From contig CAVVHS010000006.1 in the NCBI GenBank assembly GCA_963748215.1, forward strand, positions 339,259-403,258: a DNA stretch of 64,000 nucleotides, written 5' to 3'. A model generated the notes under the pieces. The model saw only the letters and a list, made by a program, of their open reading frames with translations, did no database searches and was not told the DNA's origin. The translations under genes and the position numbers were made by a program. The stretch is from an uncultured Gammaproteobacteria bacterium. Its GTDB lineage: Bacteria; Pseudomonadota; Gammaproteobacteria; UBA9214. This document shows positions 6,837 to 42,642 of this stretch, piece after piece. Every line of letters begins with the position of its first letter. Positions within the stretch are counted from its first letter, which is position 1.

Positions 6837-8807
6837 TTAGTGATCGCCCATGGCCATATCGATATAGCCGGTGGGGCAGACGTCCGAGCAGATATGACAG
6901 CCGATGCACTTGTCATAGTCGGTATCGACGTAGCGGCCCATGGTCGCCTGGTCCTTCTTGACACGGAAGATGGCATCCTGCGGACAGTAGATCACGCAGT
7001 TGTCGCACTCGAAGCACATGCCGCAGCTCATGCAGCGCTCGGCCTCGCTGACGGCCTGCTCGGGAGTCAGGCCGATGCCGCGTTCCTCGAAATGCCCCAG
7101 CACTTCCTCGGCACTCGGCCCCTTGGCGGAACGCTTGTTGCGCGGGGTGAACGGGAAGTGGCCAAGGAACAGGCGATCGGAGGAAATGATTTCCGAGCTG
7201 GAGCGGTCCTCGTAGTTGTGAACCGCGAACTGGGCATGATCGGTACCACGCATGTCGCCCATTTCATCCGCCTTGAACGGGGCCGGCGCATGGTTGGTCT
7301 CCTGGAGTTTCTTGAGCAGCTCGAAGTGGTGCACGTCGACCTTCGGGCGCTTCTTCTGCTCTTTCTGCTTCAGGTAGTGATCGATGCTCTCGACGGCAAT
7401 GGAGGCCTGACCGATGGCGGTGGTCAGCAGGTGCGGACGGATGATATCGCCGGCGACGAAATGGCCCTTGCGGCCCGGGACCTGGTAGAAGGCATCGGCG
7501 TCGATCAGGCCGCGGCCGTTGTCCAGGGACTCGAGCCCCTGGGACAGGTCGCCGCCCTGGCCGATGGCGGAGACGATGAGATCGCATTCGACCTCGAATT
7601 CGGTGCCTTCAACCGGGTTCGGACGTCCGTCCTTCATCTCGCACTTGGCCATCTTCAGGGCGCAGGCGCGGCCTTCGTCATTGACTACGACTTCGATCGG
7701 CATGACACCGTTCAGGATCGTGACACCTTCGCGCAGCGCGTCCTCGACCTCGTGTTCGGTGGCGGTCATTTCCTCGCGTTCGAACAGCGAGGTCAGTGTC
7801 ACCTCGGCACCCTCGCGGGCGGCCGCAAAGGCCGAGTCATGTGCGACATATCCGCCAATGACCTGTTCCGGACGGACTTCCTTGTTGATCTTGCTGATCT
7901 TGCCGAGGCGGCGTGCGACGGACACGACGTCGATGGAGGTATCACCGCCACCCACGCAGACCACCTTGTCGGCGGTGACCTGCAGGGTGCCCTTGTTGAA
8001 GGCTTCCAGGAAGGCAACGCCGGACACGCAGTTGGGCGCGTCGCTGTTGGGTACCGGCAGTTTCCGGCCCGATCTTGCAACCCATGGCCCAGAGAATGGC
8101 GTCGAATTCCTTTTCGATCTGCTCGATGCTGATGTCCTTGCCGACGCGGGTATTCATGCGCAGTTCGATGTCGCCCATGTCGACGATGCGCTGGCATTCA
8201 TGGTTGAGCACGTCGCGCGGGGTACGGTAGCCGGGGATGCCGTAGCGCATCATGCCGCCGAGTTCCTCGTGATCGTCGAAGATGGTGCTGGCATGGCCGA
8301 TGACGGCGCAGCTGGTAGGCGGCTGCCATGCCGGCCGGGCCGCCGCCGATGATGGCGATCTTTTTGCCGGTGAGCTTGGCGCGCTGCCTCGAAGGTGAAT
8401 TTCTTCTCGAAGGCGGAGTCGCCGATGAACTGCTCGACGGCGTTGATACCGACGAAATCCTCGACATTGTTACGGTTGCAGCCGTCTTCACACGGCGCCG
8501 GGCAGACGCGGCCCATCATGGACGGGAACGGGTTGGCGTCGGTGGAGCGGCGGAACGCATATTCTTCCATGCTCATGTCACCGGTCGGCTTCTCGATGCC
8601 GCGCACGATCTGCAGCCAGCCACGGATGTCTTCGCCGGACGGGCAGCTGCCCTGGCAGGGCGGCGTGCGGTGCACATAGGTCGGGCACTTGTGGGACGTG
8701 TCTTCATTGAAGATGTCGTCACCGATACGCGAATAGGTGTAGTCGCCATCCTTGAACCGACGGAAAGAGAGCTTGTCTTTTGCCATGTCTTCTTTTGAAG
8801 TTGCCAT
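6837..8807 (-). pseudogene. dsrL: DsrL (NAD(P)H:acceptor oxidoreductase, GltD-like Fe-S flavoprotein); reading frame interrupted by >=3 frameshifts in this sequence
   Basis: DsrL-like pieces lie in four different minus-strand ORFs: 8250-8807 (MATSKEDMAKDKLSF...), 8198-8491 (LTGKKIAIIGGGPAGMAAAYQLRR), 7942-8253 (MMRYGIPGYRTPRDVLNHE...) and 6837-8027 (C-terminal ferredoxin domain CIGCHICSDVCP). Frame changes fall near 8400, 8310 and 8050. Total span is 657 codons, matching full-length DsrL. Confidence 0.75.
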
Positions 8808-8857
8808 GCCTGTTCTCCTGTTATCTGATCAGGTGTTACCTGAGCAAAACTCAAAAA

Positions 8858-10348
8858 TTACTGTTTGTTGCCGAGCACGATCGCGTTGCTGACCAGCTGG
8901 TGCACGCTGACGATGCTGTCCATCTTGAAGCCGTAGTAGGGCAGGACCTTGGCGAACTGGCTCTTGCAGATGGCACAGATTGCGGCCATGTGGGTCACGC
9001 CATGGTTTTCGACCACGTGCTTCAGGGCCTCCATGCGCGGCAGGGCGCCCTTGACGCGCAGTTCCATCAGGTCGTCGGTCAGCAGGCCGCCGCCACCGCC
9101 ACAGCAGAAGGTGGCGTCGTGGATGGTGTCCTGCGGCATGTCGTAAAAGTGATTGCAGCTGGCCTTGATCACCTCGCGCGGCATGATGAACTGCCCGCCC
9201 GGCATCGGCCCCATGCGCGAGGCACGGGCGACGTTGCAGGAGTCGTGATAGGTCAGCACCATATCGTCATTGGCCGACTTGTCCAGCGTGATCGCGTTGC
9301 GCTGGATCAGGTCATAGGTGAATTCCAGATGTGCTGCGGTACCGGGTATTTCGGATCGAGGAAATCGAACGGCCCGGCCAGGGTGTTCAGGAAGCTGTAG
9401 GCAACACGCCAGGCATGACCGCATTCACCGAAGACGATGCGCTTTACACCGAGATCGAGCGCGGCCTCGCGGATGCGCAGCGACACCTTGCGCATGTTCT
9501 CGTAGCTGCCGATGAACATGCCGAAGTTGGCGGCCTCGCTGGCATGCGAACTCAGCGTCCAGCTGATGCCGGCCTCGTGGAATACCTTGGCGTAGCCCAT
9601 CAGGCCGTCGACGTGCGGCTCGGCGAAGAAGTCCGCCGACGGGGTCACCAGCAGTATGTCGGCGCCTTTCTCGTCCAGCGGCAGGCGCACCTTGACGCCG
9701 GTGTCGTCCTCGACGTCCTCTTCCAGGCCTTCCAGGGTGTCTGCCAGGGCCGGTTCCGGCAGGCCGAGGTTGTTGCCGATCTTGTAGACCTTGCCGATGA
9801 TTTCGTTGCAGTACTTCTGGCCGACACCGACGGAATCCATGATCTCGCGCGCTGCCATGGAGATTTCGGCGGTGTCGATGCCGTAGGGGCAGAACACCGA
9901 GCAGCGCCGGCACTGCGAACACTGGTGGAAGTAGCTGTACCAGTCGTCCAGCACTTCCTTGGTCAGGTCGGTCGCGCCAACCAGCTTGGGAAAATACTTG
10001 CCGGCGAAGGTGAAGTAACGGCGATAGACCTTGCGCAACAGATCCTGGCGCGCAACCGGCATGTTTTTCGGATCGGTGGTGCCGAGGTAGTAGTGGCACT
10101 TGTCGGTGCAGGCGCCGCACTTGACGCAGGAGTCCAGGAATACCTGCAGCGAGCGGTATTTGCCGTAGCAGCTCTTCCATCTTGTCGATGGCGACCTGCT
10201 GCCAGTTGTCGACCAGCTCGCCCGGGAAGCCCAGCTGCTGCTGGAACTCTTCCTTCGCCACAAACGGCTTGCTGTGCGCCATCACCCCTTCGTGAAGGGT
10301 CGGGATGACGGGATATTCTTTCAGCTCCGGTACTTCGAAATCAGCCAC
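8858..10348 (-). pseudogene. dsrK: DsrK (HdrD-like catalytic subunit, CCG domains); frame interrupted by 2 frameshifts
   Basis: N-terminus MADFEVPELKEYPVIPTLHEG in ORF 9425-10348; the middle (CVKCGACTDKCHYY ... GECGHAWRVAYSFLNTLAG) in ORF 9307-10263; the C-terminus (HDSCNVARASRMG ... CCGGGGG ... CAICKSQF) in ORF 8858-9424. Near 10180 the sequence ctgctAcggcaaa looks like a 1-nt insertion that is not in a homopolymer. Confidence 0.75.
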
Positions 10349-10381
10349 GCTCTGCTCCTGGTACGATCGTTATGCCGGTGG

Positions 10382-11110
10382 TTATTTCTCGAGTTCTGCC
10401 GCCCACGGTGCCAGGTGGCGCTGTTCGCGCGGGTTGTCCACCTGGTTGCGCGTCGGGCTGAAGAATACACCCGGTGCATGCAGCAGTTTGCTGATCGGGA
10501 AGATGATCATCAGCGTGGCGACCAGCCCGAGATGCACCAGCAACAGCGGATCTTCGGGAATGGGCTGCCAGTTGAAATACATCAGGCCCAGGAAAAAGGC
10601 CTTGAGCGACACGATGTCGGTGTGCGAAATGTAATCCATGCTCAATCCGGTCAGTGCAATACCCATCAGCAGTGCCAGCATCAGGTGATCGGACAGGGCG
10701 GAGATATAGCGCACCCGGTCCACCAGCACGCGGCGCGCCCACAGGCCGGCCAGTCCGGCGACCATGGCGAAGGCGGCATACAGGCCGAACGGCTGGATGA
10801 GCTCGACCCAGGTCCAGACCGGGTTGGTGAAATAACGCAGGTGGCGTGCCAGCACCAGGAACATGCCGAAGTGAAACAGGTAGCCGAAAATCCAGATCCA
10901 CTTGTTGGAACGGAACAGGCTCTCGAAGAACGCCACTTCCCGGAACATGCGCAGCACGACGCCCTGGCGCGTGACCGGTGCCGGGGTGGTCGGAATCTTC
11001 AAGGGTGCCGGTGTTTTTGCATACTTGCTGATCCTGTAGGCCAGGCCGCCGATCAGCAGGGCGGTGGCAACATAGAACAGAAGTGCATACACAATGGTCC
11101 AGAACGGCAT
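10382..11110 (-). CDS. dsrM: DsrM, NarI-like dihaem cytochrome b membrane subunit
   Basis: 242 aa, five TM helices, conserved His ligands, NarI-like; intact. Confidence 0.8.
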   Translation of the reverse strand: MPFWTIVYALLFYVATALLIGGLAYRISKYAKTPAPLKIPTTPAPVTRQGVVLRMFREVAFFESLFRSNKWIWIFGYLFHFGMFLVLARHLRYFTNPVWTWVELIQPFGLYAAFAMVAGLAGLWARRVLVDRVRYISALSDHLMLALLMGIALTGLSMDYISHTDIVSLKAFFLGLMYFNWQPIPEDPLLLVHLGLVATLMIIFPISKLLHAPGVFFSPTRNQVDNPREQRHLAPWAAELEK

Positions 11111-11186
11111 GCTACCTGGCTCCTGTTAGGGTTGTAAGATTCAGAAGGGCTGCAGGGGATGTCCCCTGCAGCCTTCGGTTGTTGCG

Positions 11187-11522
11187 TCAGACGCAGCCGG
11201 TCGGCTTCGGCAGACCGGCGTACTTGCAGGCCTGCTTGGCGGGACCGTACGGGAACAGCTCGTACAGGTACTTGCTGTTGCCCTTGTCCTTGCCCAGCTT
11301 CTTGCCGATGGCCTTGGTCAGCACGCGAACGGCCGGGGCGATCTGGTATTCCTCGTAGTATTCACGCAGGAAATTGATCACTTCCCAGTGGTTCTCGGTC
11401 AGCTCACAGTCGTCGAGCTTGGCCATGACATCCGCCACGTCCTTGTCCCATGTATTCAGGTCAGCCAGGTAACCTTCTTCGTCAGTTTCGTAAGTCTTGC
11501 CGTTCGCTTCAATTGTACCCAT
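11187..11522 (-). CDS. dsrC: DsrC sulfur-carrier protein
   Basis: 111 aa ending ...PAKQACKYAGLPKPTGCV, with both conserved C-terminal-arm cysteines present; intact. Confidence 0.9.
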   Translation of the reverse strand: MGTIEANGKTYETDEEGYLADLNTWDKDVADVMAKLDDCELTENHWEVINFLREYYEEYQIAPAVRVLTKAIGKKLGKDKGNSKYLYELFPYGPAKQACKYAGLPKPTGCV

Positions 11523-11566
11523 GTGAGGTCTCCTCGTTGGATGACGCTAATCAAAAAAAATGAAAA

Positions 11567-11863
11567 TCAGAGCCAGGACTGTACCTTGTCGTTGGCTGTA
11601 ACCAGATCGACGAACCCGCCGTAATCGATGACGTCGACGCCATCCAGCAGCTTGTCTTCCGTGATGCCGCGCGCGGCCAGGTCCGGCCCGAGCACGGCGA
11701 CCTTGAGGCCTTTCAGCAGGCTTGCCGCCTTGCCGTTTTTCATCGCTCCGTAAATACCATCCTCGATGAGCAGCAACTGGTCGCCATCCTTCATGATGGT
11801 CGATGCCGTGTTCAGGCTGCCGGTGTCGTAGGGTGACTTGTTTACCAGGTGTAACATTGCCAT
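11567..11863 (-). CDS. dsrH: DsrH (TusB-like)
   Basis: 98 aa beginning MAMLHLVNKSPYDT, DsrH/TusB fold; position after dsrF. Confidence 0.75.
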   Translation of the reverse strand: MAMLHLVNKSPYDTGSLNTASTIMKDGDQLLLIEDGIYGAMKNGKAASLLKGLKVAVLGPDLAARGITEDKLLDGVDVIDYGGFVDLVTANDKVQSWL

Positions 11864-11881
11864 TATTCCGGGCTCCCTGTA

Positions 11882-12292
11882 CTAGAAGTTGAACAGCACG
11901 TCTTGCTCGGCGAGCACGTCTGCCATTTCCGCGCGTGTGACCAGGCGGATGGAATCCTTTTCCGCGTAGTCCTCGTCCTCGTCTTCCCAGACCAGGTGTT
12001 GCAGGTCATCCAGGGTCAGGCCGCGTTCCTCGAGGGATTCCTTCTCGACGTAGATCTTGTTGACCTCGTAGTCACCCAGCGCGGCGTAGGTGGGCGAGAA
12101 GTTTTTCATGCCGATGCCCGCGGTGTCCTGGCCCTTGACGAGCTGGTACACACCGTCGTCCAGGAAGGCCATGCTGACGTCCTGTTCGAAGGCGGCGCCG
12201 ATCAGTACCACTTCCAGCGATTCCCACGCATAGATCGTCCCGTAGGGCGCCCTGCGGTTGATGTACATCATTTTCTTGGATTCTTCAGACAT
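11882..12292 (-). CDS. dsrF: DsrF (TusC-like)
   Basis: 136 aa, DsrF/TusC family; position between dsrE and dsrH. Confidence 0.75.
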   Translation of the reverse strand: MSEESKKMMYINRRAPYGTIYAWESLEVVLIGAAFEQDVSMAFLDDGVYQLVKGQDTAGIGMKNFSPTYAALGDYEVNKIYVEKESLEERGLTLDDLQHLVWEDEDEDYAEKDSIRLVTRAEMADVLAEQDVLFNF

Positions 12293-12306
12293 TGCCGCTC
12301 TCCCGC

Positions 12307-12700
12307 TCAGTCGCCGAACACGACCAGTCGATCGCTCTGGACGCCACCTTCGATCAGCTGACCCAGTCCGGAAATGCGGAAGCCGGGGGCGATGTTGGTT
12401 GCGTCCTTGCCGTTACGCTGCGCCTCGCCCTCGTCGACGATGCCGCGCCGCTGGGCGGCAGCCACGCACACCACCATGTCGATGTTGTGTGCCTGTCCCA
12501 GTTCACTCCAGCGCTTGACGATATTGCGATCGTCCTGCGGCGGTGTGGTCAGGCGCGTGCCGTTGTTGACGCCGTCGTGGTAGAAAAAGATACGAAAGAT
12601 CTCGTGTCCCTTTTCCAATGGCCGCCTTGGCGAAAAAGTAGGCCGTGTCCGCGGCCTGGTGCTGGTAGGGCCCCTCGTTAACCTGGATTGTAAGCTTCAT
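12307..12700 (-). pseudogene. dsrE: DsrE (TusD-like sulfurtransferase); 1 frameshift
   Basis: N-terminus MKLTIQVNEGPYQHQAADTAYFFAKAAI is in ORF 12503-12700; the rest (EKGHEIFRIFFYHDGVNN ... CVAAAQRRG ... RLVVFGD) is in ORF 12307-12618. At the junction attgGaaaaggg reads as a 1-nt insertion. Confidence 0.75.
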
Positions 12701-12715
12701 TCACATACCCTCTGA

Positions 12716-13793
12716 TCAGAAACGGATATGGGTTGAAGCGTTCAGGCTTGCACGGGCACCACGCCAGTTGTCGATGTGGTACTTGGTGAACGGCAGCCCG
12801 GTCTTCTCGAAGAAACGCGGCCAGCCGATACGCTCGATCCAGTCGTTGATACGCTCCCAGTCCTTGGCGTCTTCCTTGTAGACCTTGAGGATCTTCTTGA
12901 CGACGGCGGTGGCTTCCGGCCAGCGCGGCGGGTTGTTCGGGATGCCGGAGGCGACCAGCTTCTGGAAGGTCGGCTTGCCGCGGGCATTGGAGTGGTTGCC
13001 GCCCACCCAGATGGCCAGCTTGGAGTGCTCGGCGTCGTTGATCTGCATCGGCGGGCAGGGCGGGTAAGCAGGCACCGCAGCAGATGCACTTCTTCTCGTC
13101 GACTTCCAGCGACGGCTTGCCGTTGACCAGTGCCGGGCGAATGGCCGCGACCGGGCAGCGTGCCACGACCGACGGACGCTCGCAGACGTTGGACAACCAG
13201 GTCGTGGTTGATCTTCGGCGGCTTGGTGTGCTGCACGTTGATGGCGATGTCGCCCTGGCCGCCGCAGTTGATCTGGCAGCAGGAGGTGGTCATGTGCACG
13301 CGGTTCGGCATGTTCGCAGCCTTTGAACTCGTCGATCAGCTCGTCCATCATCGACTTGACCACGCCGGAGGCGTCGGTGCCCGGGATGTCGCAGTGCAGC
13401 CAGCCCTGGGTGTGCGACATCATGGCGACGGAGTTGCTGGGTACCGCCGACGACGAAGCCGGCATCTGTCAGCGCCTTGATCAGCGGCTCGACCTTGGCC
13501 TCGTCGGACACCATGTATTCGATGTTGCTGCGAATGGTGAAGCGCACATAACCCTCGCCGTAGGTGTCACCGATTTCGCACAGCTTGCGCAGGGTGAACA
13601 GGTCGAGGATACGCTGGGTGCCGGCGCGCACGGTCCAGATCTTGTCGCCATTGTTGGCAACGTGCAGCAGGACGCCGGGCTGCGGATCTTCGTGATAGGC
13701 CCACTGCCCGTAGTTCTTGCGCATTACCGGGTGCATGTACTGGAATCCGTCAGGACATCCGGATTCGATCGGCGAACGCATTTCTTGTGCCAT
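12716..13793 (-). pseudogene. dsrB: DsrB, dissimilatory sulfite reductase beta subunit; >=4 frameshifts
   Basis: DsrB segments alternate between three minus-strand frames: 13290-13793 (N-terminus), 12716-13465 (SNSVAMMSHTQGWLHCDIPGTDASG, and again the C-terminus INDAEHSKLAIWVGGNHSN...), 12742-13311 (MTTSCCQINCGGQGDIAINVQHTKPPKI) and 12678-13196 (VDEKKCICCGAC). Shift points fall near 13440, 13320, 13200 and 13055. Confidence 0.8.
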
Positions 13794-13880
13794 GTGATTC
13801 TCCTGAAAATCTCTTCAAGTTTTTGAACAAATCCCGGCGTTTGTACGCCGGGGTTGTCATATATGAACGGGTTGACCGGC

Positions 13881-15147
13881 TTACGCGGAGGCAGCCTGCT
13901 CCTCGGCCTTGCGCTCGAACCACTTCTCGGCTTCTTCGTCCCAGCCGTCCATGCGGACGTAGGAAGACTGGCGCGGGTTGCTGACCATGTTCGGGTCCAC
14001 CTCGACGCCGATGCCTTCGAGGAAGTTGACCAGACCGATACGCTCGATCATTTCACCGCAGCGCTCGTGCTCCAGGCCGTTCTCGGCCCAGAAGTCGATG
14101 ATCTCCTCGGCCATTTCACTGCAGGCTTTCGTAGTCTTCCTCGGTTTCCAGCTTCTTGAACGGGACCACCACGGTACCCATCAGGTCGCCGATCTTCAGC
14201 GTGCGCTTGCCGCCGATCAGGATGGTGACGCCCTTGTCGTCGCCCGGGTGCAGCGCCTTCGGCATGACGTTCAGGCAGTGCATGCAGCGCACGCAGTTCG
14301 TGGTTGTCGACGGTCGATGGTGTCGTCGTCGTTCAGGGTCAGGGCCTTGGTCGGGCAGCGGGTGATGACGTTGTCGATCACGTACTGACGGCCTTTCTTG
14401 CCGACGTAGTCCTTGACTTCTTCCTGGTCGACCTTCATGTCGTCGCGCCAGGTGCCGATGACGGCGAAGTCGGCGCGCTCGATGGCGTTCTGGCAGTCAT
14501 TCGGGCAACCGGAGACCTTGAACTTGAACTTGTAGGGCAGGGCCGGACGGTGCACGTCGTCGGTGAAGTTGTTCACCAGCCAGCGCTGGATGCCGTGCTC
14601 GTTGGCAGCAGGACATTTCGCAGCGCGCCGCACCGACACAGGACATGGCGGTACGCACGCACGGGCCGGCACCACCGAGATCCCAGCCGTACTCGTTGAT
14701 TTCGTCGAAGAAGTGCTGGGTGTTTTCGGTGGTGGTACCGATAAACATGATGTTGCCGGTCTGGCCGTGGAAGGTCACCAGGCCGGAACCCCATTTTTCC
14801 CAGCTGTCGCCGAGCTGGCGCAGCATGTCGGTGGTGTAGTAGTTGCCGGCCGGCGGCTGCACGCGCAGGGTGTGGAATTCCTTCGATTCCGGGAAGGCCT
14901 TGCCGACTTCGGAGAAGCGCGGGATGATGCCGCCGCCATAGCCGTAGACACAGACGGTGCCGCCTTTCCAGTAACCCTTGCGGGTTTCGTAGGAGTGCTC
15001 GAGCTGACCCAGCAAACCGTTGGTGACGTCGTTGATGCGTTCGTCCGGGTGCTCGTCACGCAGCCGCTTGATGCCGGTGATGAAGCTCGGCCAGGGGCCG
15101 TTCTCGAGTTCGTCCAGCATGGGAGTCGGGTAGGTGTTCTTGGCCAT
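13881..15147 (-). pseudogene. dsrA: DsrA, dissimilatory sulfite reductase alpha subunit; >=3 frameshifts
   Basis: N-terminus in ORF 14497-15147 (MAKNTYPTPMLDELENGPW ... SCVGAARCE), the middle in ORF 14271-14675 (KFKFKVSGCPNDCQNAIERADFAVIGTW), the C-terminus in ORF 13881-14114 (IIDFWAENGLEHERCGEMIERIGL). Total span 422 codons, matching full-length DsrA. Confidence 0.85.
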
Positions 15148-15507
15148 GGCAATAATCTCCTGGATTGTTTTCTACACCAATTGGTTTGCTACTGATGACA
15201 GCGCGCGCTGTCGCCCTGCCGGGCAACTGGAAATCAGCGAGTTATACGGAATTACAACAGCGTAACTCTCAGTTGAGCGCATTGTAGAAAGGCTCTGCGG
15301 GTATACATATCCTACCCTTGGGGTGGCGCCTATATGGGCCCGTATCCCGAACGGGGTATTGGCAGAATATTGATTTAATTTCCGGTAGTTATCAGAGTTG
15401 CCCGGATTTACTAATGCGTACAGAACTTTTTCTTATATTAACGCGCACTTAAGTAACCCTTTCTCAACCGGAGAAACGGGATTGCCGGTGTGATTTCAGC
15501 TATTTAG

Positions 15508-15632: not shown

Positions 15633-16577
15633 ATGATACACAGTCCAGACAGCTTTCGACCCTTTGACCTTGCCGGCGATGCCGACTACCGGGTCTGGCG
15701 CGCGTGGAAGCTGGATGGCTACCCCGTGGCCGCCGCCGACCTGATTGTGGACGTCGGCGATCCGGCGCACCTGTCAGCGGCCGAGCATGCGGCGATCCTG
15801 GCGCGCTGCCGCAAGGCCAATATGGCGATTTATGCCGTCCGGGGTGGTGGTAGCGCGGACAAGGAGGCGGTGCGCGCACTGGGCAGGCAGTTCGGGCTGG
15901 AACGTCTGGACATGAACCTGCGCGCCGACGAGGACAGCATCACCGCGTTGCGGGTGGTACCGGAATCGGCGGGGACCCGTTACATCCCCTACACCAACCG
16001 GCCGCTGAACTGGCATACCGACGGTTACTACAACACGCTCGACGAACAGGTGCGGGCCATCCTGATGCACTGCGTGTCCGCCGCGGCCAGCGGCGGCGAG
16101 AGTGTGCTGTTCGATCACGAACTCGCCTACCTGTTGCTGCGTGACGAGAATCCGGATTACATTCGCGCGCTCATGCAGCCGGACGCCATGACCATCCCGG
16201 CCAACATAGAGGACGGCCGGCAGATCCGCGGCGCGCAATCCGGTCCGGTCTTTACGGTTGAAAAGGGTAGCAACGCCCTCCATATGCGTTATACGGCACG
16301 CACCCGCAGTATCGAGTGGAAGGACGACCGGGACGTGCGCAATGCCATCGAATTCCTGCGTGAATTGCTGGACAGCGACCTGCCCTGGATCTTCCGGCAC
16401 CGGCTGCAGGCCGGACAGGGCATTATCTGCAATAATGTACTGCACAGGCGCGATGCCTTTGACGACGCGGCGGGTGACGGACAGGCCCGGCTGCTGTACC
16501 GGGCGCGTTATCACGACCGGATCCGCGCGACCGTCGCCGACAATGATTTTTATGGAGACAGGCAATGCTGTGGTTGA
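15633..16577 (+). CDS. TauD/TfdA-family Fe(II)/2-oxoglutarate-dependent dioxygenase-like protein
   Basis: 314 aa with a His-x-Asp motif in NWHTDGYYN and overall TauD-like spacing; divergent from dsrA. Confidence 0.6.
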   Translation: MIHSPDSFRPFDLAGDADYRVWRAWKLDGYPVAAADLIVDVGDPAHLSAAEHAAILARCRKANMAIYAVRGGGSADKEAVRALGRQFGLERLDMNLRADEDSITALRVVPESAGTRYIPYTNRPLNWHTDGYYNTLDEQVRAILMHCVSAAASGGESVLFDHELAYLLLRDENPDYIRALMQPDAMTIPANIEDGRQIRGAQSGPVFTVEKGSNALHMRYTARTRSIEWKDDRDVRNAIEFLRELLDSDLPWIFRHRLQAGQGIICNNVLHRRDAFDDAAGDGQARLLYRARYHDRIRATVADNDFYGDRQCCG

Positions 16578-16756
16578 GCGAAGTGCTGATACAGCAGCAT
16601 GACATCGAGTCCTTCGAGGCCCTGAAGCAGGCCATCAGCGCGCGTGCGCGCGGCGGCGAGATCCATTTCCGCATGGATGTGCGTCCGCCGTTTCCCGATA
16701 CACCCGAAGACTGGGAAGACCGGCTGGAAGCGGCCTTCTACTCGACAGGCAATTAA
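16565..16756 (+). CDS. Small hypothetical protein (63 aa), translationally coupled
   Basis: Start overlaps the preceding stop by 13 nt and the next gene starts 13 nt after its stop; coding-like codon usage. Confidence 0.35.
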   Translation: MLWLSEVLIQQHDIESFEALKQAISARARGGEIHFRMDVRPPFPDTPEDWEDRLEAAFYSTGN

Positions 16757-16768
16757 CCCCGGCGGTCA

Positions 16769-17467
16769 ATGACAAGCATGTTCTGGAACGACGAAAAGCA
16801 GAAAGCACCGGACTTCGTGATCCCGGATGACGTCGTCGACCTGGCGTTCAGGATCGGCTGCCCGACACTGCCGCTGGATCACGCCCATGCCCTGTCGCGA
16901 GCCCTGCTCGAGGTCCTGCCCTGGCTGGATGACGAGCCGCATGCCGGCGTCCACCTGATTCACGGTGCCGCCTCCGGTAACGGCTGGTATCGCCCCGAGG
17001 ATGCCGCCAGCGAGCTGCTGCACCTGTCGCGGCGTACCCGCATGCGCCTGCGTGTGCCCAGGCATCGCCTGGAGGATGCGCGCAAGCTGACCGGCCGGCG
17101 GCTCGATATCGGCGGCCATCCGCTCGAAGTCGGCGACTCGGAGGTTTTCCTGCTGAGCAGCCTGTCGACGCTGTTCTCGCGCTACGTCATGACCGGGGCC
17201 GACACCGATGAACAGGCCTTCCTGGAGGAGGCCACGCGTGGGCTGCAGGCCATCGATATCGATTGCCGCAAAATGCTGGGGGGCATCAGCCATGCTCTGC
17301 AGTTCCCGGACGGACCGGTACACACCCGCAGCCTGATGGTGGCGGATCTCGAGCCGGAGCAGTCGGTGCGACTGCAGCAGCTCGGACTGGGCGAGGGGCG
17401 CAGCATCGGCTGCGGCCTGTTCCTGCCGCACAAGGGCATCAAGCCGGTCAACGACGCAAAGGAATAG
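16769..17467 (+). CDS. Hypothetical protein with a Cas6f(Csy4)-like Gly-rich C-terminal motif (EGRSIGCGLFLPHKGIKP)
   Basis: 232 aa. The C-terminus resembles the Csy4 G-rich loop (EGGFTCYGLSKGGFVP) and the N-terminus DLAFRIGCPTLPLDHAHAL resembles DIRLRPDPEFPPAQL. There is no CRISPR array or other cas gene in the window, and the family assignment is not verified. Confidence 0.45.
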   Translation: MTSMFWNDEKQKAPDFVIPDDVVDLAFRIGCPTLPLDHAHALSRALLEVLPWLDDEPHAGVHLIHGAASGNGWYRPEDAASELLHLSRRTRMRLRVPRHRLEDARKLTGRRLDIGGHPLEVGDSEVFLLSSLSTLFSRYVMTGADTDEQAFLEEATRGLQAIDIDCRKMLGGISHALQFPDGPVHTRSLMVADLEPEQSVRLQQLGLGEGRSIGCGLFLPHKGIKPVNDAKE

Positions 17468-17694
17468 CCTTGTCGGTCAGGCGCTGTCCCGGGCGAGGCC
17501 TGCCATTCCGGTGTTGCGCGATAAATACCTGCCCGCGCGGCTGAGACCCGCCAGGACAGCCGGCAAACCGTCGTATAAGGAAACGCACTTCGGCCGGCTT
17601 CCCATATGGGATATGTTCGGTGCTCGGGCAACTGGCTATAGTTGCGCTTATTCAATAATTTACAACGACTTGACTCGCATCCGGAGAGAAGATC

Positions 17695-17914: not shown

Positions 17915-17951
17915 TAAAAAGCCGCATTCCGAAAGGGTGCGGCTTTTTTTT
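17915..17951 (+). terminator. Rho-independent terminator
   Basis: Hairpin aaaaaGCCGCAttccgaaagggTGCGGCtttttttt. Confidence 0.6.
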
Positions 17952-18187: not shown

Positions 18188-18532
18188 TCAGTACCCGCCC
18201 TTGCGCAGGATGAATGGCAGACCGGCGATCCGGTTACCCTGCTTGCTGGGGGCGAAGGGGAACAGTTCAAAGAGTTCCTTGCTGCTGACTTTCTTGTCCC
18301 AGATCTTGGCCATGCTCTTGTTGATCACCCGCTCCATGGGCTGTGAGCCGTTGTTATCGAAGTATTCCGAGCGCAGGTAATTCAGTACATCGAAATGCGC
18401 CTCGGTCAGCTCGATACCTTCCTTGGCGGCCAGTGCTTTCGCAACATCCTCATCCCAGGCGGTCGGGTCGGTGAGATTGCCGTTCTCATCCAGTTCGATG
18501 CTCTTGCCGTTTACGTCCAGTGCCATTTTCAT
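18188..18532 (-). CDS. DsrC/TusE-family paralog lacking both conserved cysteines
   Basis: 114 aa: MKMALDVNGKSIELDENGNLTDPTAWDEDVAKALAAKEGIELTEAHFDVLNYLR... aligns with DsrC along its length, but the C-terminus is SKQGNRIAGLPFILRKGGY rather than AKQACKYAGLPKPTGCV. Confidence 0.7.
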   Translation of the reverse strand: MKMALDVNGKSIELDENGNLTDPTAWDEDVAKALAAKEGIELTEAHFDVLNYLRSEYFDNNGSQPMERVINKSMAKIWDKKVSSKELFELFPFAPSKQGNRIAGLPFILRKGGY

Positions 18533-18740: not shown

Positions 18741-19250
18741 ATGCGTATTCGGGAATTCACCCTGCCAGACCCGGCGGCACTCAACGAGCGTCTGTATGCC
18801 CGGTTTCTGGAATTATCCGGCACCGACCGGATCAGGCAGACCCATCATTTTGCCGGCCGTTTCGAGAACACCTACATCGCCGCGGCTGACATACCGGAGA
18901 TTGCCGCGGTTCTGGATGTGTTCCGGCAGCAGGCCGCGCAGTGGCTGGACGTTGCCGCGGATACGCTGAAGGCCGGGTTCTGGTTTAACGCCATGGGACC
19001 GGGGCACGTGACTTCACCGCATCACCACGACGAGAACGACGAGCTCCTTTCGGCGGTGTACTACATCCGCGTACCCGCAAACTCCGGCGAGTTGATCCTG
19101 TACGACGACGATACGCCGGTCACCGTGCGGCCGGAAGAAGGCAAGCTGGTGATGTTCGGTCCTGATGTGATGCACGAGGTGACGGTCAACAACAGCCCGG
19201 AGCTGCGCCTGTCTGTCGGCATGAACATCGGGCCGGCTGATGCGGAATAG
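18741..19250 (+). CDS. 2OG-Fe(II) oxygenase superfamily protein (TIGR02466-like cupin)
   Basis: 169 aa with HHHDENDELLSAVYYIRVP ... MHEV, a H-x-D...H facial-triad pattern. Confidence 0.5.
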   Translation: MRIREFTLPDPAALNERLYARFLELSGTDRIRQTHHFAGRFENTYIAAADIPEIAAVLDVFRQQAAQWLDVAADTLKAGFWFNAMGPGHVTSPHHHDENDELLSAVYYIRVPANSGELILYDDDTPVTVRPEEGKLVMFGPDVMHEVTVNNSPELRLSVGMNIGPADAE

Positions 19251-20188: not shown

Positions 20189-20860
20189 TCAGACATCCGA
20201 CCACATGCGCACCAGGTTGATGTAGGACTGGTTGACCTGCACGGTTTCCGCTGCGTCCGGTCTATCATGCAACAATACCTCGCGTGCCTGGTTCAGGTCG
20301 TGCAGCAGCGCGCGGCGGTCGGGTTCGCGCACCAGGCTCTGTATCCAGCTCACGGCGACCAGGCGTTCGCCGCGGGTGACTTCGGCGACGCGGTGGATGC
20401 TGGAGGAGGGGTAGATCACGGCGTCGCCGGCCGACAGCTTGACCTGCTGGTCGCCGAACGGGGTCTGGATGCATAGCTCGCCGCCATCGTAGTCCTGCGG
20501 TTCATTCAGGAAGATCGTTACCGACACATCGGACCGGTACAGGTCACCCTGGCCCATGATCGGGTCGTCGACATGATTACCGTAGGCCATGCCGGGCAGG
20601 TAGCGGGCGTAGTAGGGCGTGGCGGTCTTGCGTGGCATGGCTGCGCTGCGGAATACCGCATGCCGGACCAGGCTGCCCATCACCAGGTTGTTGAGTTCGC
20701 TCATGCGTGCCGGGTCCAGCGCCAGTTCCTCGTTCAGCTTGACGCGCCGTGCCGCCGTACCGGCAGAGCCGCGGCCGTCACCGAAGCGTCCGCCGGCGAT
20801 CAGCCGTTCGACGGTATTGAGTTGCGAGCGGTCGAGCACGCCCTCTATACGGGTGAGCAT
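20189..20860 (-). CDS. PKHD-type hydroxylase (YbiX-like Fe(II)/2OG oxygenase)
   Basis: 223 aa; MLTRIEGVLDRSQL start and HxD...H motifs typical of YbiX/PiuC. Confidence 0.7.
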   Translation of the reverse strand: MLTRIEGVLDRSQLNTVERLIAGGRFGDGRGSAGTAARRVKLNEELALDPARMSELNNLVMGSLVRHAVFRSAAMPRKTATPYYARYLPGMAYGNHVDDPIMGQGDLYRSDVSVTIFLNEPQDYDGGELCIQTPFGDQQVKLSAGDAVIYPSSSIHRVAEVTRGERLVAVSWIQSLVREPDRRALLHDLNQAREVLLHDRPDAAETVQVNQSYINLVRMWSDV

Positions 20861-22139: not shown

Positions 22140-22752
22140 TCAGGCGAACACGACCCAGGTAGTGGCGATGTACTTGACGCCCTGCTCGAGTCTGGCGCCA
22201 CGGTGTTCGTGGGTCCAGAACGGCGGAAACAGCAGCAGCTTGCCGGCCTCGGGCTGAATCTGGACGTCCTGGCAGGAAAACTCGGTGGCCCCGCCGGGGC
22301 CGGGCACATCGTTCAGGTACCAGACCGCCACCAGCTGGCGCTGGCTGAAATCGTGGCTGCCGCCGTCGATGTGCCAGTGATAGAACTCGCCGGGCAGGGT
22401 GCGCTGGATGGCATAGCCGCTGTCCTTGAATGGGCCGCCGAAAAAGGGATAGGCATTGCGGAATTCCTGGATGGCCCGTCCCAGCGACCGAAACAGCTCG
22501 CGATCGATGTCCTGCCAGTGTTCCTTGCCGCTGACCACCAGGTCGGTCGAGCGCTTGATGTCGCGTTCCTGCTGCACGGTCTGGCCGACGCGGCCGGGAT
22601 ACTGTTCATCCGTGCGTTCCTCGAAGCGGCGGATCATCTCGTTGCATATGTCGAGCGGCAATGCGCGTGGCTTCTCGAAGATGAAACTCAGCGGCTTTAC
22701 CTCGCGGAGAGTGGTCAGTGGCGCGGTCGGTGCCGTAGCGGATTGTTTCATG
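22140..22752 (-). CDS. 2OG-Fe(II) oxygenase superfamily protein (TIGR02466-like), second copy
   Basis: FYHWHIDGGSHDF ... FPPFWTHEH. The track ORF runs to 22817; the likely start is MKQSATAP. Confidence 0.55.
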
Positions 22753-22771: not shown

Positions 22772-23857
22772 TCAGAGCTGGTTCGATTCGATGGTGGCGA
22801 TGAGTTGCTGCCGGCACCCGGTGCCTTGCCGGTCGAACAGGTCAAGCAGCTCGCCGGCCAGTGTCGTCCAGTGCGCCGCCGAGCGGTCAGAGAGTTGCTC
22901 GAGTTCACGGGTATTCCCGGTAATCGTCCAGATCTCGTAGGCGGCGAGCAGTTGCGGAAACAGTTCCTTGCGCATGCTGGACAGGCTGCCGATGTAGCAA
23001 TGCAGTGTCGCCGGGTTGTTCTCCGCCAGCAGGCCGGGCAGCGTCGAAAGCGCGTCCGCCAGGTGATCGCGCACGGCGCGCAGCATGATCTCCTCCCTGC
23101 TGTGGCCGAGTCTCACCAGCATGTCTTCCCAGCCGGGACCGAGCAGTTTGCCGGCCTGCACCTCGCCGATCTCGTGCAGCATCACCGTGTTCAGCTCGCT
23201 GTCGGTCATCGCCTCGAGCGATTCGTCCGGTGCGTTCTCGAAGTCATAGCACTCGAGGGCGTGCTGCATGGCATTGGCCGGGCGGTTCCAGCGCCATTCC
23301 TCGAGTCGTTCCCACAGCATCCTGCGCAGCGACTCGCGACGGATGAAGATGGTGCCGTCCAGGCTCATGGCCGGCGGCGCAGCGAGGTCGCGCGCCAGCT
23401 CCCGGCCGGATACCAGCAACTGGTAATCATCACGTTGCCGGTGGACCTCGAGCGTGCCCATGAAGAACACCGGCTTCATGCCGGGACCGTAGCCGCTGCT
23501 GTAGACATACCCGAGCGGATTCAGCACGGCATTGATCGCGGCGCTATCGAAAGGACTGAAGCGTTCATTGCCGACCGGTATATTCTCGAAGCGGCTGTGC
23601 TCGAGGCTGTCCCAGTGCGTCTCGCGCCGGGTCAGCCAGTCGGTCAGCTGGTCGTGCGGCAAGGCGGCCCCGAACGGCAGGCCGTGTTCCCAGCGAAAGT
23701 ACTCGCGCATCTTGAGCAGGTAGACGCACAGGGTGTAGTTGGTGGCGAATTGCGCATCGGAGATATGGCAGTTGGTGCGCACAGCACCGAGCGTCGGCAT
23801 CAGTGCGCTGATGTCGGCTGCTGCTGCGAATGGACTGGGTCTGCCGTTGGTCTTCAC
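22772..23857 (-). CDS. Hypothetical protein (361 aa)
   Basis: Long ORF with coding-like composition; overlaps the downstream gene start (translational coupling). Confidence 0.5.
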   Translation of the reverse strand: MKTNGRPSPFAAAADISALMPTLGAVRTNCHISDAQFATNYTLCVYLLKMREYFRWEHGLPFGAALPHDQLTDWLTRRETHWDSLEHSRFENIPVGNERFSPFDSAAINAVLNPLGYVYSSGYGPGMKPVFFMGTLEVHRQRDDYQLLVSGRELARDLAAPPAMSLDGTIFIRRESLRRMLWERLEEWRWNRPANAMQHALECYDFENAPDESLEAMTDSELNTVMLHEIGEVQAGKLLGPGWEDMLVRLGHSREEIMLRAVRDHLADALSTLPGLLAENNPATLHCYIGSLSSMRKELFPQLLAAYEIWTITGNTRELEQLSDRSAAHWTTLAGELLDLFDRQGTGCRQQLIATIESNQL

Positions 23858-23900: not shown

Positions 23901-24521
23901 GTGACATTATGCCTCGCCATTATCATCGTCTGGCAGCCAGGACGGGGCGGCAGGAGAGCCGGTGTGAGAGTCAAGAGCAAGTGGAATATCAAGGAACGGG
24001 AACGCAGTCTGGCCGAGATCGGCGGCGCGGCAGCGTTTATCCTGTGGCGCATTGCGCAGCAGGGTACGCTCAACCTCGAGAACGAGGGCTTCCAGACCGA
24101 CACCAACGCCCAGCGCCTGGATATCATCGCGGAGTTTGTGGCTTTTCTGGTGCACATGGCCGACCGGCTGAAGGCCACGGAGCTGGACCAGACGCAACGC
24201 CAGGAATTCATCACTTCGCTGGCGCGTCACCTGGCGGACCAGGTGCAGGACAACCGTACCGATGCGCAGGGCAAGGGAGAATACCGGCAGGCGTTTATCG
24301 AACTGCTCAACTCACGTACCGCGGACTACGCCGAATTTACCATGGTGGATGGCGAGCCCGGCTACGCCCTGAAACGCTACTTCGGGGAGAACGTGCGCGC
24401 CGTGATGGGCGAGAAGGACAACAAGTGGATCACCGACCAGGTGATGGAAATCGAGTTGCCCGAGGCGATGACACCGCTGCGCAAGGCGCTGCGCGAGCTG
24501 TTTGCGCGCCCGGAGACATAA
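23901..24521 (+). CDS. Hypothetical protein (~190-206 aa)
   Basis: ORF; possible GTG start near 23961; followed by a terminator. Confidence 0.45.
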   Translation: MTLCLAIIIVWQPGRGGRRAGVRVKSKWNIKERERSLAEIGGAAAFILWRIAQQGTLNLENEGFQTDTNAQRLDIIAEFVAFLVHMADRLKATELDQTQRQEFITSLARHLADQVQDNRTDAQGKGEYRQAFIELLNSRTADYAEFTMVDGEPGYALKRYFGENVRAVMGEKDNKWITDQVMEIELPEAMTPLRKALRELFARPET

Positions 24522-24567: not shown

Positions 24568-24762
24568 CTATTTTTTCCACTCGCCGAAGTTGTCGGCGTT
24601 GTGCGCCTTGCCGTCTTCGTAGCCGGCGGAGTAGGCGTCGGTGACACGCTGCTCTTCACGCTCCGGGTTCAGCAGGTAACCGCCCTGCCAGCCCTGGATG
24701 TAATCCGGGTCGACGCCATTTTCTTCCATCTTGGTGACTGCGTTGTAGTATTCCTGGTTCAT
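24568..24762 (-). CDS. Small hypothetical protein (64 aa)
   Basis: ORF ending at the bidirectional terminator. Confidence 0.35.
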   Translation of the reverse strand: MNQEYYNAVTKMEENGVDPDYIQGWQGGYLLNPEREEQRVTDAYSAGYEDGKAHNADNFGEWKK

Positions 24763-24820
24763 CGTTGCTTCCTCGTCTCGGTCTATGTTTGGGTTGAAAG
24801 GGTTGCCGCCGCGCGCCTGT

Positions 24821-29496: not shown

Positions 29497-29639
29497 CCTA
29501 CCAATACTGCATGGTATGGATTCTGCTTTCTGTAGGAATTTTCCTATTTTCCGTAAATTTCCCGATCGCTAGCCTCACTCGTGTAAAAGTGGTATTAGGG
29601 AAAAACAAATAACTTATGGATGATAGAGGAGGGGGGAAG

Positions 29640-42565: not shown

Positions 42566-42642
42566 GTCCCCATCGTCTAGTCGGCCTAGGACACCGCCCT
42601 TTCACGGCGGTAACAGGGGTTCGAATCCCCTTGGGGACGCCA
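42566..42642 (+). tRNA. tRNA-Glu (TTC)
   Basis: GTCCCCATCGTCTAGTCGGCCTAGGACACCGCCCTTTCACGGCGGTAACAGGGGTTCGAATCCCCTTGGGGACGCCA. Confidence 0.9.

Follow-up and report, generated by a model that had tools for sequence, protein, structure and literature searches.

A Cas6-superfamily protein encoded in a conserved operon beside the reverse dsr genes of sulfur-oxidising Gammaproteobacteria

What does a Cas6-superfamily protein do beside the reverse (oxidative) dsr genes of a gammaproteobacterium, in an operon that starts with a dioxygenase gene? The question is raised by the following genes of the window, which is the whole stretch of 64,000 nucleotides that was analysed:

13881–15147, reverse strand: dsrA, at the head of the divergent reverse-dsr operon, apparently frameshifted
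15633–16577, forward strand: TauD-like dioxygenase, 314 aa, first gene of the operon
16565–16756, forward strand: 63-aa protein, directly 5' of the Cas6 gene
16769–17467, forward strand: protein of the Cas6 superfamily (Cmx6/type I-B kind), 232 aa
17695–17898, forward strand: conserved 67-aa protein, last gene of the unit
18188–18532, reverse strand: DsrC-family paralogue (Pfam DsrC, 9.3e-32)
20189–20860, reverse strand: PKHD/YbiX-type 2OG-Fe(II) oxygenase (Pfam 2OG-FeII_Oxy_3, 1.7e-14, and PKHD_C)
23901–24521, forward strand: 206-aa protein (p206 family), a conserved, family-less neighbour

The initial annotation had described the first three forward ORFs as an overlapping or abutting block that diverges from dsrA, and the coordinates bear out both points. 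The TGA of the TauD-like gene (16575–16577) lies beyond the ATG of the 63-aa gene (16565), which gives a 13-nt overlap, and 12 nt separate the TAA of the latter (16754–16756) from the ATG of the Cas6 gene. Most Cas6 homologues begin at the second ATG, at 16778, with MFWNDE, and this is likely the true start. The 67-aa gene comes next and is followed by a terminator. On the dsr side, apparent frameshifts affect dsrA, dsrB, dsrK and dsrL. Judged from their sequences, the TauD-like, 63-aa and Cas6 genes are all real, because the first product has a Pfam match of 5.7e-24 and a metal triad, the second has 514 homologues, and dN/dS values of 0.06–0.33 indicate purifying selection on every gene of the operon.

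Family and fold of the Cas6 protein

The 232-aa protein matches PF09559 with 217.7 bits (cutoff 26.7) over profile positions 1–190 of 191, and TIGR02807 with 143.3 bits, above the equivalog cutoff of 98.85. On the same models, a genuine CRISPR Cas6 (PDB 8FCJ chain B, from the type I-B CAST Cascade) reaches 221 and 189 bits. The double RRM (ferredoxin-like) fold of Cas6 proteins is found as well; the AF2 model is of moderate confidence (pLDDT 68), which counts against the explanation favoured below. The C-terminal Gly-rich loop, GhGxxxxxGhG, is present as G206-L-G208-EGRSI-G214-C-G216 and is invariant in 20 homologues and 92–95% conserved in 143 representatives. By profile and fold, the protein is thus a Cas6-fold member of the PF09559/TIGR02807 (Cmx6, type I-B-like) family.

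The initial annotation had instead likened it to Cas6f/Csy4, the type I-F endoribonuclease. Both Cas6f/Csy4 and Cas6/Cmx6 are RRM-fold proteins of the broad Cas6/RAMP superfamily, and their Gly-rich C-terminal motifs look alike, but only superficially. The window protein has no match to Cas_Csy4 (PF09618) at E ≤ 10, whereas the Csy4 of P. aeruginosa, used as a control, scores 7.2e-64; BLASTP between the two proteins gives E = 1.4, and Csy4 is absent among the fold matches listed. The C-terminal motif on which the assignment had drawn, GEGRSIGCGLFLPHKGIKP, does occur at residues 208–226, but the G-rich loop cited with it, EGGFTCYGLSKGGFVP, is the sequence of P. aeruginosa Csy4 itself and is absent from the window. 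Neither a type I-F array nor csy1-3, cas1 or cas3 was found within the 64 kb, where about 45 ORFs were scanned for genes. Homology to Csy4/Cas6f is ruled out by the profile, pairwise and fold comparisons, with no detectable sequence or profile similarity, and a Cas6f/Csy4-family endoribonuclease at this locus has next to no probability. Of the proposed co-opted, stand-alone Cas6f-family protein paired with a dioxygenase, what stands is a Cas6-family protein outside CRISPR beside a TauD-like gene; its Cas6f type does not.

The Cas6/Cmx6 proteins of type I-B/I-MYXAN are the relevant relatives, at 21–22% identity in the case of 8FCJ chain B. Those proteins belong to CRISPR systems, whereas in the dsr-linked clade the gene shares a fixed operon with those for a dioxygenase, small proteins and a DsrC paralogue, with neither arrays nor cas genes alongside. 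Several invariant features of the clade are missing in CRISPR Cas6, namely the SGNGW loop, R89, E148 and H38. Compared with 8FCJ_B, the clade has an additional invariant SGNGW(x)RPE loop, a PHKGI C-terminus and His38 in place of Asn; this His is 91% conserved in the dsr-linked clade, and its replacement in 8FCJ_B, which leaves catalytic equivalence doubtful, counts against the favoured explanation. So does the pI of the clade, which is acidic to neutral (median 6.5, window protein 5.8), in contrast to the crRNA-binding 8FCJ_B (9.2). Its conservation is strong, with 71–90% identity across 120 clusters and a dN/dS of about 0.15.

Neighbourhood and partner proteins across loci

Clustering at 50% identity splits the clade into at least 179 clusters, and its species-level genomes number at least 293; its neighbours are dsr, TauD, the DsrC paralogue and 2OG oxygenases. 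Across 80 species-level genomes, the module is a block transcribed away from the reverse-dsr operon, and this arrangement persists at Cas6 identities as low as 35%. The 63-aa gene is present in 82 of 84 loci, always directly 5' of Cas6, and TauD lies upstream in 73 of the 75 loci that could be assessed. Divergent dsrA (57 of 59 assessable loci), the DsrC paralogue adjoining Cas6 (78 of 80) and the downstream 67-aa gene (71 of 80) recur in the same way, as do the PKHD/YbiX-type oxygenase (58 of 63 assessable loci) and the 206-aa protein (34 of 36 long loci). Several further 2OG oxygenases are conserved nearby. The order in most relatives is TauD, 63-aa, Cas6, Cys-less DsrC paralogue with a KGGY end, and 67-aa; the paralogue is inverted in the clade of the window, whereas in most other loci it lies on the same strand, directly 3' of Cas6.

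A second lineage, represented by 74 metagenomic loci, has these families in another order, together with a rhodanese, and again beside dsrAB. Its TauD orthologue is 48% identical, its DsrC paralogues end in GKGGY, and a protein encoded inside one of its Cas6 operons (L091:7984-8604) is 39% identical to the 206-aa protein of the window (E 2e-43). In two loci, L036 and L040, the 63-aa–Cas6 pair occurs without TauD and dsrA nearby, and in L040 its neighbour is dsrEFHC. The carriers found are all sulfur-oxidising Gammaproteobacteria; cultured ones include Thiohalobacter thiocyanaticus (Hrh1) and Thioalkalivibrio denitrificans (ALJD), and CP070821.1, CP070738.1 and OZ252002.1 are among the complete genomes with the module.

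The first gene of the operon encodes a TauD/TfdA-family Fe(II)/2-oxoglutarate dioxygenase, as its match to PF02668 (85.9 bits, 5.7e-24, profile positions 13–266 of 267) indicates. The metal triad H128-x-D130...H281 and the C-terminal Arg motif RLLYRARY are conserved in 84 homologues. Matches to more specific models are weak (NCBIfam BBOX, TmpA and TMLH), and the nearest PDB entry, TmpA 6NPB, is reached at only E~1e-3.

The 63-aa protein is acidic (pI about 4.6) and forms an orphan family with an almost invariant core, MLWLSE...FFRMDVrPPFxDTPEDWEDRLEAAF. Its AF2 model has three helices (pLDDT 87), and a PDB fold search returned no match. NCBI names the protein DsrC, to which it is unrelated: as a DsrC relative or a DUF6967 member it was rejected on an hhalign probability of 0.5% and an hmmsearch E of 0.12. 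No fusions of it to Cas6 were found; the long representatives are mis-called starts. The 67-aa protein has 74 distinct homologues with a conserved C-terminus, AH.EKGS, and no Pfam or PHROG match; the 206-aa protein likewise has no Pfam match.

The DsrC paralogue is a clear member of PF04358, the DsrC/TusE/RspA family (9.3e-32), but neither functional cysteine is present and its C-terminus reads KQGNRIAGLPFILRKGGY. DsrC proper carries two C-terminal cysteines in its ...C...PTGC(V) arm, and the loci also hold 50 true DsrC copies, with PTGCV or PTGCI at the end, whereas all 81 of 81 paralogues end in (R/K)KGGY within a conserved arm, GLPxxx(R/G)KGGY. Without cysteines and with this ending, the paralogue falls into the RspA-type class, a recognised class of Cys-less DsrC-family members (PMC8477390). 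The lack of both cysteines, together with the invariant (R/G)KGGY end, means that a persulfide relay as in DsrC/TusE is not possible. In tRNA thiolation by TusA-TusBCD-TusE-MnmA, a sulfur relay is combined with an RNA-binding partner. The second-lineage operon, with its rhodanese, may resemble this composition by analogy, and the resemblance is weakened because the paralogue has no relay cysteines.

Control elements, hairpins and CRISPR searches

Four non-coding elements accompany the operon:

15311–15325: conserved motif CCTACCC(A/T)TGGGGTG in the dsrA–TauD spacer
15343–15358: 16-nt inverted repeat TATCCCGAACGGGGTA, with the family pattern TAYCYC-N3-6-GRGRTA
17601–17642, forward strand: conserved block with an operator-like palindrome, CCCATATGGGATA (17601–17613), and about 20 nt on a -10-like sequence, TGGCTATAGT (17633–17642)
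17916–17951: bidirectional intrinsic terminator, a GCCGCA..GAAA..TGCGGC hairpin with an A-tract and a T-tract, ending the operon

The spacer to the dsr operon is about 480 nt long and holds a conserved palindromic element. Its first motif was found by nhmmer in 64 of 68 dsrA–TauD spacers and is probably the operator half of a shared control region. The inverted repeat occurs 69 times in 1.2 Mb against about 3 expected, 57 times in the dsrA–TauD spacer, and also lies 5' of the 63-aa–Cas6 pair in L036 and L040. It was considered as an RNA hairpin for Cas6 (TATCCC-N4-GGGATA) and rejected: its arms vary independently (Fisher p 0.68–1.0) without covariation, C-A mismatches are frequent, and the two strands pair equally (91% against 89%), with no strand preference. 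The repeat is probably a DNA operator for a dimeric regulator; candidates for the latter are the DsrC paralogue and a NarL-type response regulator at 29616–30287, which together with a GAF-HisKA_3 kinase lies beyond 10 kb from the module. Since a conserved palindromic DNA operator lies in the divergent spacer that the two operons share, the Cas6 operon is probably co-regulated with dsr. Operator-like repeats also recur upstream of other genes.

Downstream of Cas6, the block at 17601–17642, conserved in 12–17 loci, likely serves the 67-aa gene of this clade as an internal promoter; a sigma-70 promoter scan of 15.0–18.7 kb returned no sites. At nearly every locus the 67-aa gene has a hairpin after it, though with differing stem sequences. 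Because the stem differs between clades and is flanked by A and T tracts, the hairpin was taken as an intrinsic terminator and discarded as a sequence-specific Cas6 site. The spacers between Cas6 and the DsrC-like gene, considered as in-operon processing sites, hold only variable, terminator-like hairpins. Rfam searches of the whole window at gathering thresholds, and of 14.9–19.4 kb in E-value mode, returned only tRNAs, RtT elements and sub-threshold noise. Two results count against the favoured explanation: Rfam has nothing near the operon, and no conserved RNA hairpin or candidate RNA target was found there.

In agreement with the initial annotation, no CRISPR-like array was found in the 64-kb window, and among its roughly 45 substantial ORFs a Pfam scan identified neither cas nor csy genes, which agrees with the claimed absence of cas1-3 and csy. 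Flanks of ±10 kb around the loci, together 1.8 Mb (1.26 Mb from 80 genomic and 0.54 Mb from 74 metagenomic loci), are also free of arrays. The 169-nt tandem repeat at 42.6 kb (42624–43111), the sole large one of the window, was weighed as an array candidate but consists of RtT elements after tRNA genes, and a repeat candidate in locus L058 is a coding Lys/Glu/Ala repeat.

Possible functions and comparison with known systems

From gene content and conservation, the module is very probably non-CRISPR and dsr-linked. Taken as a whole, the explanation towards which we lean, on balance, is that the Cas6-fold protein no longer acts in CRISPR immunity and would be a subunit of an accessory module of the reverse (oxidative) dsr system, with a role related to RNA. 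That the genes overlap or abut suggests joint synthesis of the operon products, which may form a complex. In it, the Cas6-fold subunit would bind, and perhaps cleave, a specific RNA; with the dioxygenase and the DsrC/TusE-like paralogue as partners, it could act on the sulfur-oxidation regulon either post-transcriptionally or by modifying RNA. Our best guess is that the protein serves as the RNA-binding subunit of an accessory complex co-regulated with dsr; that it still binds RNA, taken by itself, is plausible but falls somewhat short of probable. A more specific version is a good deal less likely: Cas6 as the nucleic-acid-recognition subunit of an O2-dependent complex with the TauD-like enzyme, the KGGY-type DsrC paralogue and the small partners, which would mark or process a specific RNA, an mRNA of the dsr regulon or a tRNA, and so couple O2 availability to rDsr expression or activity. 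It would then be an RNA-targeting system derived from Cas6, of a type not known before, with a housekeeping role in metabolism.

A serious, if rather unlikely, alternative is that the Cas6 fold serves as an RNA-independent protein scaffold. It would bring the TauD-like dioxygenase together with its target, either the Cys-less DsrC paralogue or the 63-aa protein, for hydroxylation that depends on O2. Once modified, the paralogue might modulate DsrAB or the trafficking of sulfur, for instance by sitting in the channel that receives the DsrC arm, and so serve as an O2-sensing switch of rDsr. The loss of net positive charge (median pI 6.5 against 9.2 for 8FCJ_B) and the conserved RNA element that was not found are consistent with such an adaptor, while the clade-specific invariant SGNGW loop, R89, E148 and H38 point to a novel site for binding or catalysis. 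Cas6, DsrC paralogue and TauD-like enzyme co-occur in two lineages, several other 2OG oxygenases are conserved nearby, and the weak nearest relatives of the TauD-like enzyme, BBOX, TMLH and TmpA, fit with the Lys in the invariant C-terminus of the paralogue. TMLH hydroxylates trimethyl-lysine. Small modulators of DsrAB also have a precedent in DsrD, which acts allosterically (PMC8794893). Against the scaffold stand the RNA-binding G-rich loop and Arg-rich strand of Cas6 proteins, which are kept almost invariant, and the lack of fusions among the representatives examined.

By its NCBI name, 'type I-MYXAN CRISPR-associated protein Cas6/Cmx6', the protein would be an ordinary CRISPR Cas6 that acts in trans, processing the pre-crRNA of arrays elsewhere in the genome. 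Such a role would agree with the scores on PF09559 and TIGR02807, which resemble those of 8FCJ_B and pass the equivalog cutoff, and type III systems are known to have stand-alone cas6 genes that serve distant arrays. It is nevertheless very improbable, given a fixed operon beside dsr in about 150 loci, in two gene orders and down to 35% identity, the unusually strong conservation, the clade-specific insertion and acidic pI, and the absence of arrays from the 1.8 Mb of flanks and of cas genes from the window ORFs scanned.

Still less credible is an adjacency to dsr that is inherited synteny without functional meaning, with Cas6 as the decaying remnant of a lost CRISPR locus: shared ancestry of the carriers, all sulfur-oxidising Gammaproteobacteria, does contribute to the pattern, but each operon gene is under purifying selection, the association outlasts the reordering in the second lineage and the change of neighbour in L040 (dsrEFHC), genes outside the module vary between loci, and the dsr promoter region shares the conserved operator.

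If the favoured explanation is true, a large clade of a core Cas family works wholly outside CRISPR under strong constraint. It would represent either a clean exaptation of Cas6 or a view of the roles of Cas6-like RRM proteins before or alongside CRISPR. For sulfur microbiology, the dioxygenase, the Cas6-fold protein, the KGGY DsrC paralogue, p206, the small proteins and the shared operator would make up a conserved, probably co-regulated accessory set of rDsr, and the position of the Cas6-fold protein beside dsr points to an undescribed role in sulfur metabolism. With the labels 'type I-MYXAN ... Cas6/Cmx6' and, for the 63-aa protein, 'DsrC', censuses of CRISPR among sulfur oxidisers come out too high and the module goes unnoticed; the literature searched contains no description of it.

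Array-less exaptations of Cas proteins include the Streptomyces I-E cas5-8 module with a STAND NTPase, haloarchaeal HRAMP, type IV systems and CASTs (PMC8730458, PMC6452270); no case like the Cas6–dsr module is listed in these two reviews. Like it, they are Cas-derived proteins that serve other ends than canonical adaptive immunity and often have no array next to them. The known cases, however, are multi-subunit effector modules tied to defence or mobile elements, whereas the Cas6–dsr module has a single Cas6 gene in a chromosomal sulfur-oxidation neighbourhood.

A Cas6-family protein encoded in a three-gene block

The three ORFs of the initial annotation lie where it had placed them, divergent from dsrA and all on the forward strand:

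15633-16577, +, TauD-like gene, 314 aa
16565-16756, +, 63-aa gene, directly upstream of Cas6
16769-17467, +, Cas6 gene, 232 aa

They overlap or abut as described, with the TauD stop codon overlapping the start of the 63-aa gene by 13 nt and 12 nt separating the stop of the latter from the Cas6 ATG; a second ATG, at 16778 (MFWNDE), is the start in most Cas6 homologues. The reported absence of CRISPR was borne out as well, since no CRISPR-like array is detected in the 64 kb and no cas gene was recognized by Pfam among about 45 substantial ORFs, which comprise the dsr operon, sirohaem synthase, two-component regulators, UvrC, GltX, GlnS, RNase E, and similar genes. The sole large tandem repeat, at 42624-43111, is made up of RtT elements that follow the genes for tRNA-Ala and tRNA-Glu (unit of 169 nt, 2.9 copies, two of them identical; Rfam RtT, RF00391, matched twice at 61 bits).

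Of the proposed Cas6f-like identity, the assignment to the Cas6 family stands, and the Cas6f part is ruled out by profile, BLASTP, and structural comparisons: the Cas_Csy4 profile gives no match even at E<=10 (Csy4 control, 7e-64), the protein aligns with Csy4 at E=1.4, and the listed structural matches of the predicted structure, which is of moderate confidence only, include no chain of Csy4. In NCBI, the protein is named "type I-MYXAN CRISPR-associated protein Cas6/Cmx6," although its clade never adjoins CRISPR, and the 63-aa protein is labeled "sulfur relay protein DsrC," which is unsupported, as it has no DsrC similarity; both names would likely mislead automated censuses.

The 63-aa protein is real and acidic (pI about 4.6), and is predicted with good confidence to fold into three helices (pLDDT 87); it has no neighbor among PDB folds and is unrelated to both DsrC and DUF6967. 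The TauD-like enzyme keeps the triad H128-x-D130...H281 and is only remotely related to the characterized BBOX, TMLH, and TmpA.

Conserved neighborhoods beside dsr

The Cas6-fold protein shows no CRISPR link in the flanks scanned, is fixed in a dsr-adjacent operon, and is strongly constrained. The homolog search returned 2372 matches, the best 120 clusters of which are 71-90% identical, an unusual degree of conservation, and an exhaustive search gave 989 clusters at 50% identity (E<=1e-30 in 179/989). A scan of species-representative genomes found a relative in 293 species, all sulfur-oxidizing Gammaproteobacteria and almost entirely uncultured MAGs, with Thiohalobacter thiocyanaticus and Thioalkalivibrio denitrificans as cultured carriers. 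Three loci of this gammaproteobacterial dsr/Cas6 type come from MAGs labeled "Halobacteria archaeon" (L012, L022, L023; identity to the window 72-73% for Cas6 and 93-95% for DsrA), and these contigs are probably mis-binned or mislabeled.

In lineage 1, the window type, the neighborhood is near-invariant.

Neighborhood of Cas6 in lineage 1, counted in 80 loci and six more
63-aa gene, directly upstream of Cas6: 82/84 loci
TauD-like gene, upstream of the 63-aa gene: 73/75 loci
dsrA, divergent: 57/59 loci
DsrC-family paralog adjoining Cas6: 78/80 loci
67-aa gene: 71/80 loci
PKHD-type 2OG oxygenase: 58/63 loci

The context, dsrABEFHCMKL(-) facing TauD-63aa-Cas6-DsrC-like, is unchanged at 35-38% identity to the window protein; in one locus, L040, it is dsrEFHC from which the 63aa-Cas6 pair diverges. 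Purifying selection acts on each of the four operon genes (dN/dS 0.06-0.33), and 1.26 Mb of lineage-1 loci contain no CRISPR array. The usual order is Cas6, DsrC-like, 67aa, and an intrinsic terminator, and in the window clade the DsrC paralog is inverted, past the terminator at 17916-17951. Seven genomes (L032, L037, L038, L044, L051, L057, L073) carry an extra gene of ~223 aa without Pfam match between the 63-aa gene and Cas6 (for example, L051:9328-9999).

The DsrC paralog is a clear PF04358 member without either functional cysteine:

window 18188-18532, -, DsrC paralog
L082:8707-9048, DsrC paralog of another homologous locus
L091:6692-7048, DsrC paralog of another homologous locus

Every copy, in lineage 2 as in lineage 1 (81/81), ends in (R/G)KGGY, whereas the true DsrC copies at those loci end in PTGCV or PTGCI; judged by this invariant C-terminus, the paralogs beside Cas6 are a distinct sequence class.

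Genes for 2OG-Fe(II) oxygenases are unusually dense here, with three besides the TauD-like gene (among 18741-19250, 20189-20860, 22140-22751, and 22772-23857) beside genes for a GNAT acetyltransferase and a DUF6866 protein, and most of this group is kept beside the module elsewhere (DUF6866 in 33/36 long loci). A strongly conserved block at 24586-24768, seen in ~40 loci between the gene for the 206-aa protein p206 and a glycosyltransferase-family-3 gene, is probably an uncalled minus-strand ORF of ~64 aa, of which L082 has an annotated counterpart (10847-11041).

When L086, a relative without the clade-specific insertion, was used as a query on metagenomes, 74 loci of a second lineage were obtained, in the order dsrEBA(-) facing DUF6967-Cas6-DsrC-like-tandem rhodanese-p206-TauD, then hemA and prfA, with no CRISPR array in 0.54 Mb. 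Between the lineages, Cas6 is 34% identical, the TauD-like proteins are orthologs sharing 48% identity (3e-97), and the 206-aa protein is homologous to that of window 23901-24521 (39%, 2e-43). Cas6, the DsrC paralog, the TauD-like protein, and p206 thus stay together beside dsrAB despite rearrangement, which argues for a functional link and not inherited synteny alone.

In the window, dsrA, dsrB, dsrK, and dsrL (6840-15147) are each broken across reading frames by multiple single-base insertions absent from near-identical relatives. Compared with L002 and with L001, which comes from another assembly (99.5% identity), dsrAB has six, at 13316, 13438, 14118, 14296, 14315, and 14608 (the last absent from L001), none within a homopolymer; dsrM, dsrC, dsrEFH, and all genes from 15633 to about 29000, the Cas6 side included, are intact. 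The frameshifts reflect either an assembly artifact confined to this region or pseudogenization of core dsr genes in the strain.

The control region and a candidate regulon

The dsrA/TauD spacer is kept at about 450-520 nt, and in 64/68 it carries CCTACCC(A/T)TGGGGTG followed, after ~14 nt, by TATCCC-N4-GGG(A/G)TA:

15311-15325, first half of the spacer element
15343-15358, second half of the spacer element

An RNA hairpin for Cas6 was rejected, as the two arms change without regard to each other (Fisher p 0.68-1.0), C-A mismatches are frequent, and pairing is equal on both strands, all of which make the inverted repeat a palindrome at the DNA level. Where about 3 occurrences of the pattern would be expected, 69 are observed; it still precedes the 63aa-Cas6 pair at loci lacking dsrA and TauD, is found upstream of a Sel1-repeat gene (L035, L053, L059, L063, L064, L066), and has a related palindrome upstream of the 67-aa gene (window 17601-17613). 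TAYCYC-N3-6-GRGRTA plus CCTACCCWTGGGGTG is common to the dsrA/TauD control region, the 67-aa promoter, and the Sel1-repeat/~380-aa gene pair. The palindrome looks like a shared operator of a small regulon coupling the Cas6 operon, which is probably co-regulated with dsr, to the latter. Its 7-2-7 layout resembles that of NarL/NarP sites, and candidate regulators that may act on it are encoded at the two ends of the dsr and accessory region:

1016-2572, -, GAF-HisKA_3 histidine kinase, one end
29616-30287, +, NarL/LuxR-type response regulator, other end

Possible roles and known systems

Tentatively, the Cas6-fold protein may be the subunit that binds RNA in an accessory complex co-regulated with dsr. 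Retained RNA binding is favored by the glycine-rich loop, invariant in 20 homologs, and by a set of conserved basic residues (R88/89/91/95, R138, K168, R187, K222), three of which are common to crRNA-bound 8FCJ_B, the Cas6 chain of a type I-B CAST Cascade. It is disfavored by the acidity of the clade (median pI 6.5 vs 9.2 for 8FCJ_B), by the clade-specific nature of its most conserved residues (SGNGW loop in 139/143 representatives, R89, E148, H38), and by the intergenic regions, none of which yielded an RNA element that is conserved, and on these grounds an RNA-independent adaptor or protein-modification role is conceivable, if rather unlikely. Ordinary CRISPR use in trans, for a clade whose scanned flanks hold no array in either lineage, is highly improbable.

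RNA binding is further favored by the DsrC/TusE-like partner, joined in lineage 2 by a rhodanese, a combination that brings to mind the tRNA-thiolation relay. It would be pure speculation to add that the near-C-terminal Gly-Gly of the paralog recalls ubiquitin-like sulfur carriers needing C-terminal trimming, with the rhodanese adjacent in lineage 2. No description of this dsr-linked Cas6 module was found in the literature outside subscription journals, and nothing resembling it in reviews of Cas exaptations, which cover CASTs, type IV, Streptomyces I-E with STAND, and HRAMP (PMC8730458, PMC6452270). The protein belongs to a known family by sequence and is probably new by its context and presumed role.
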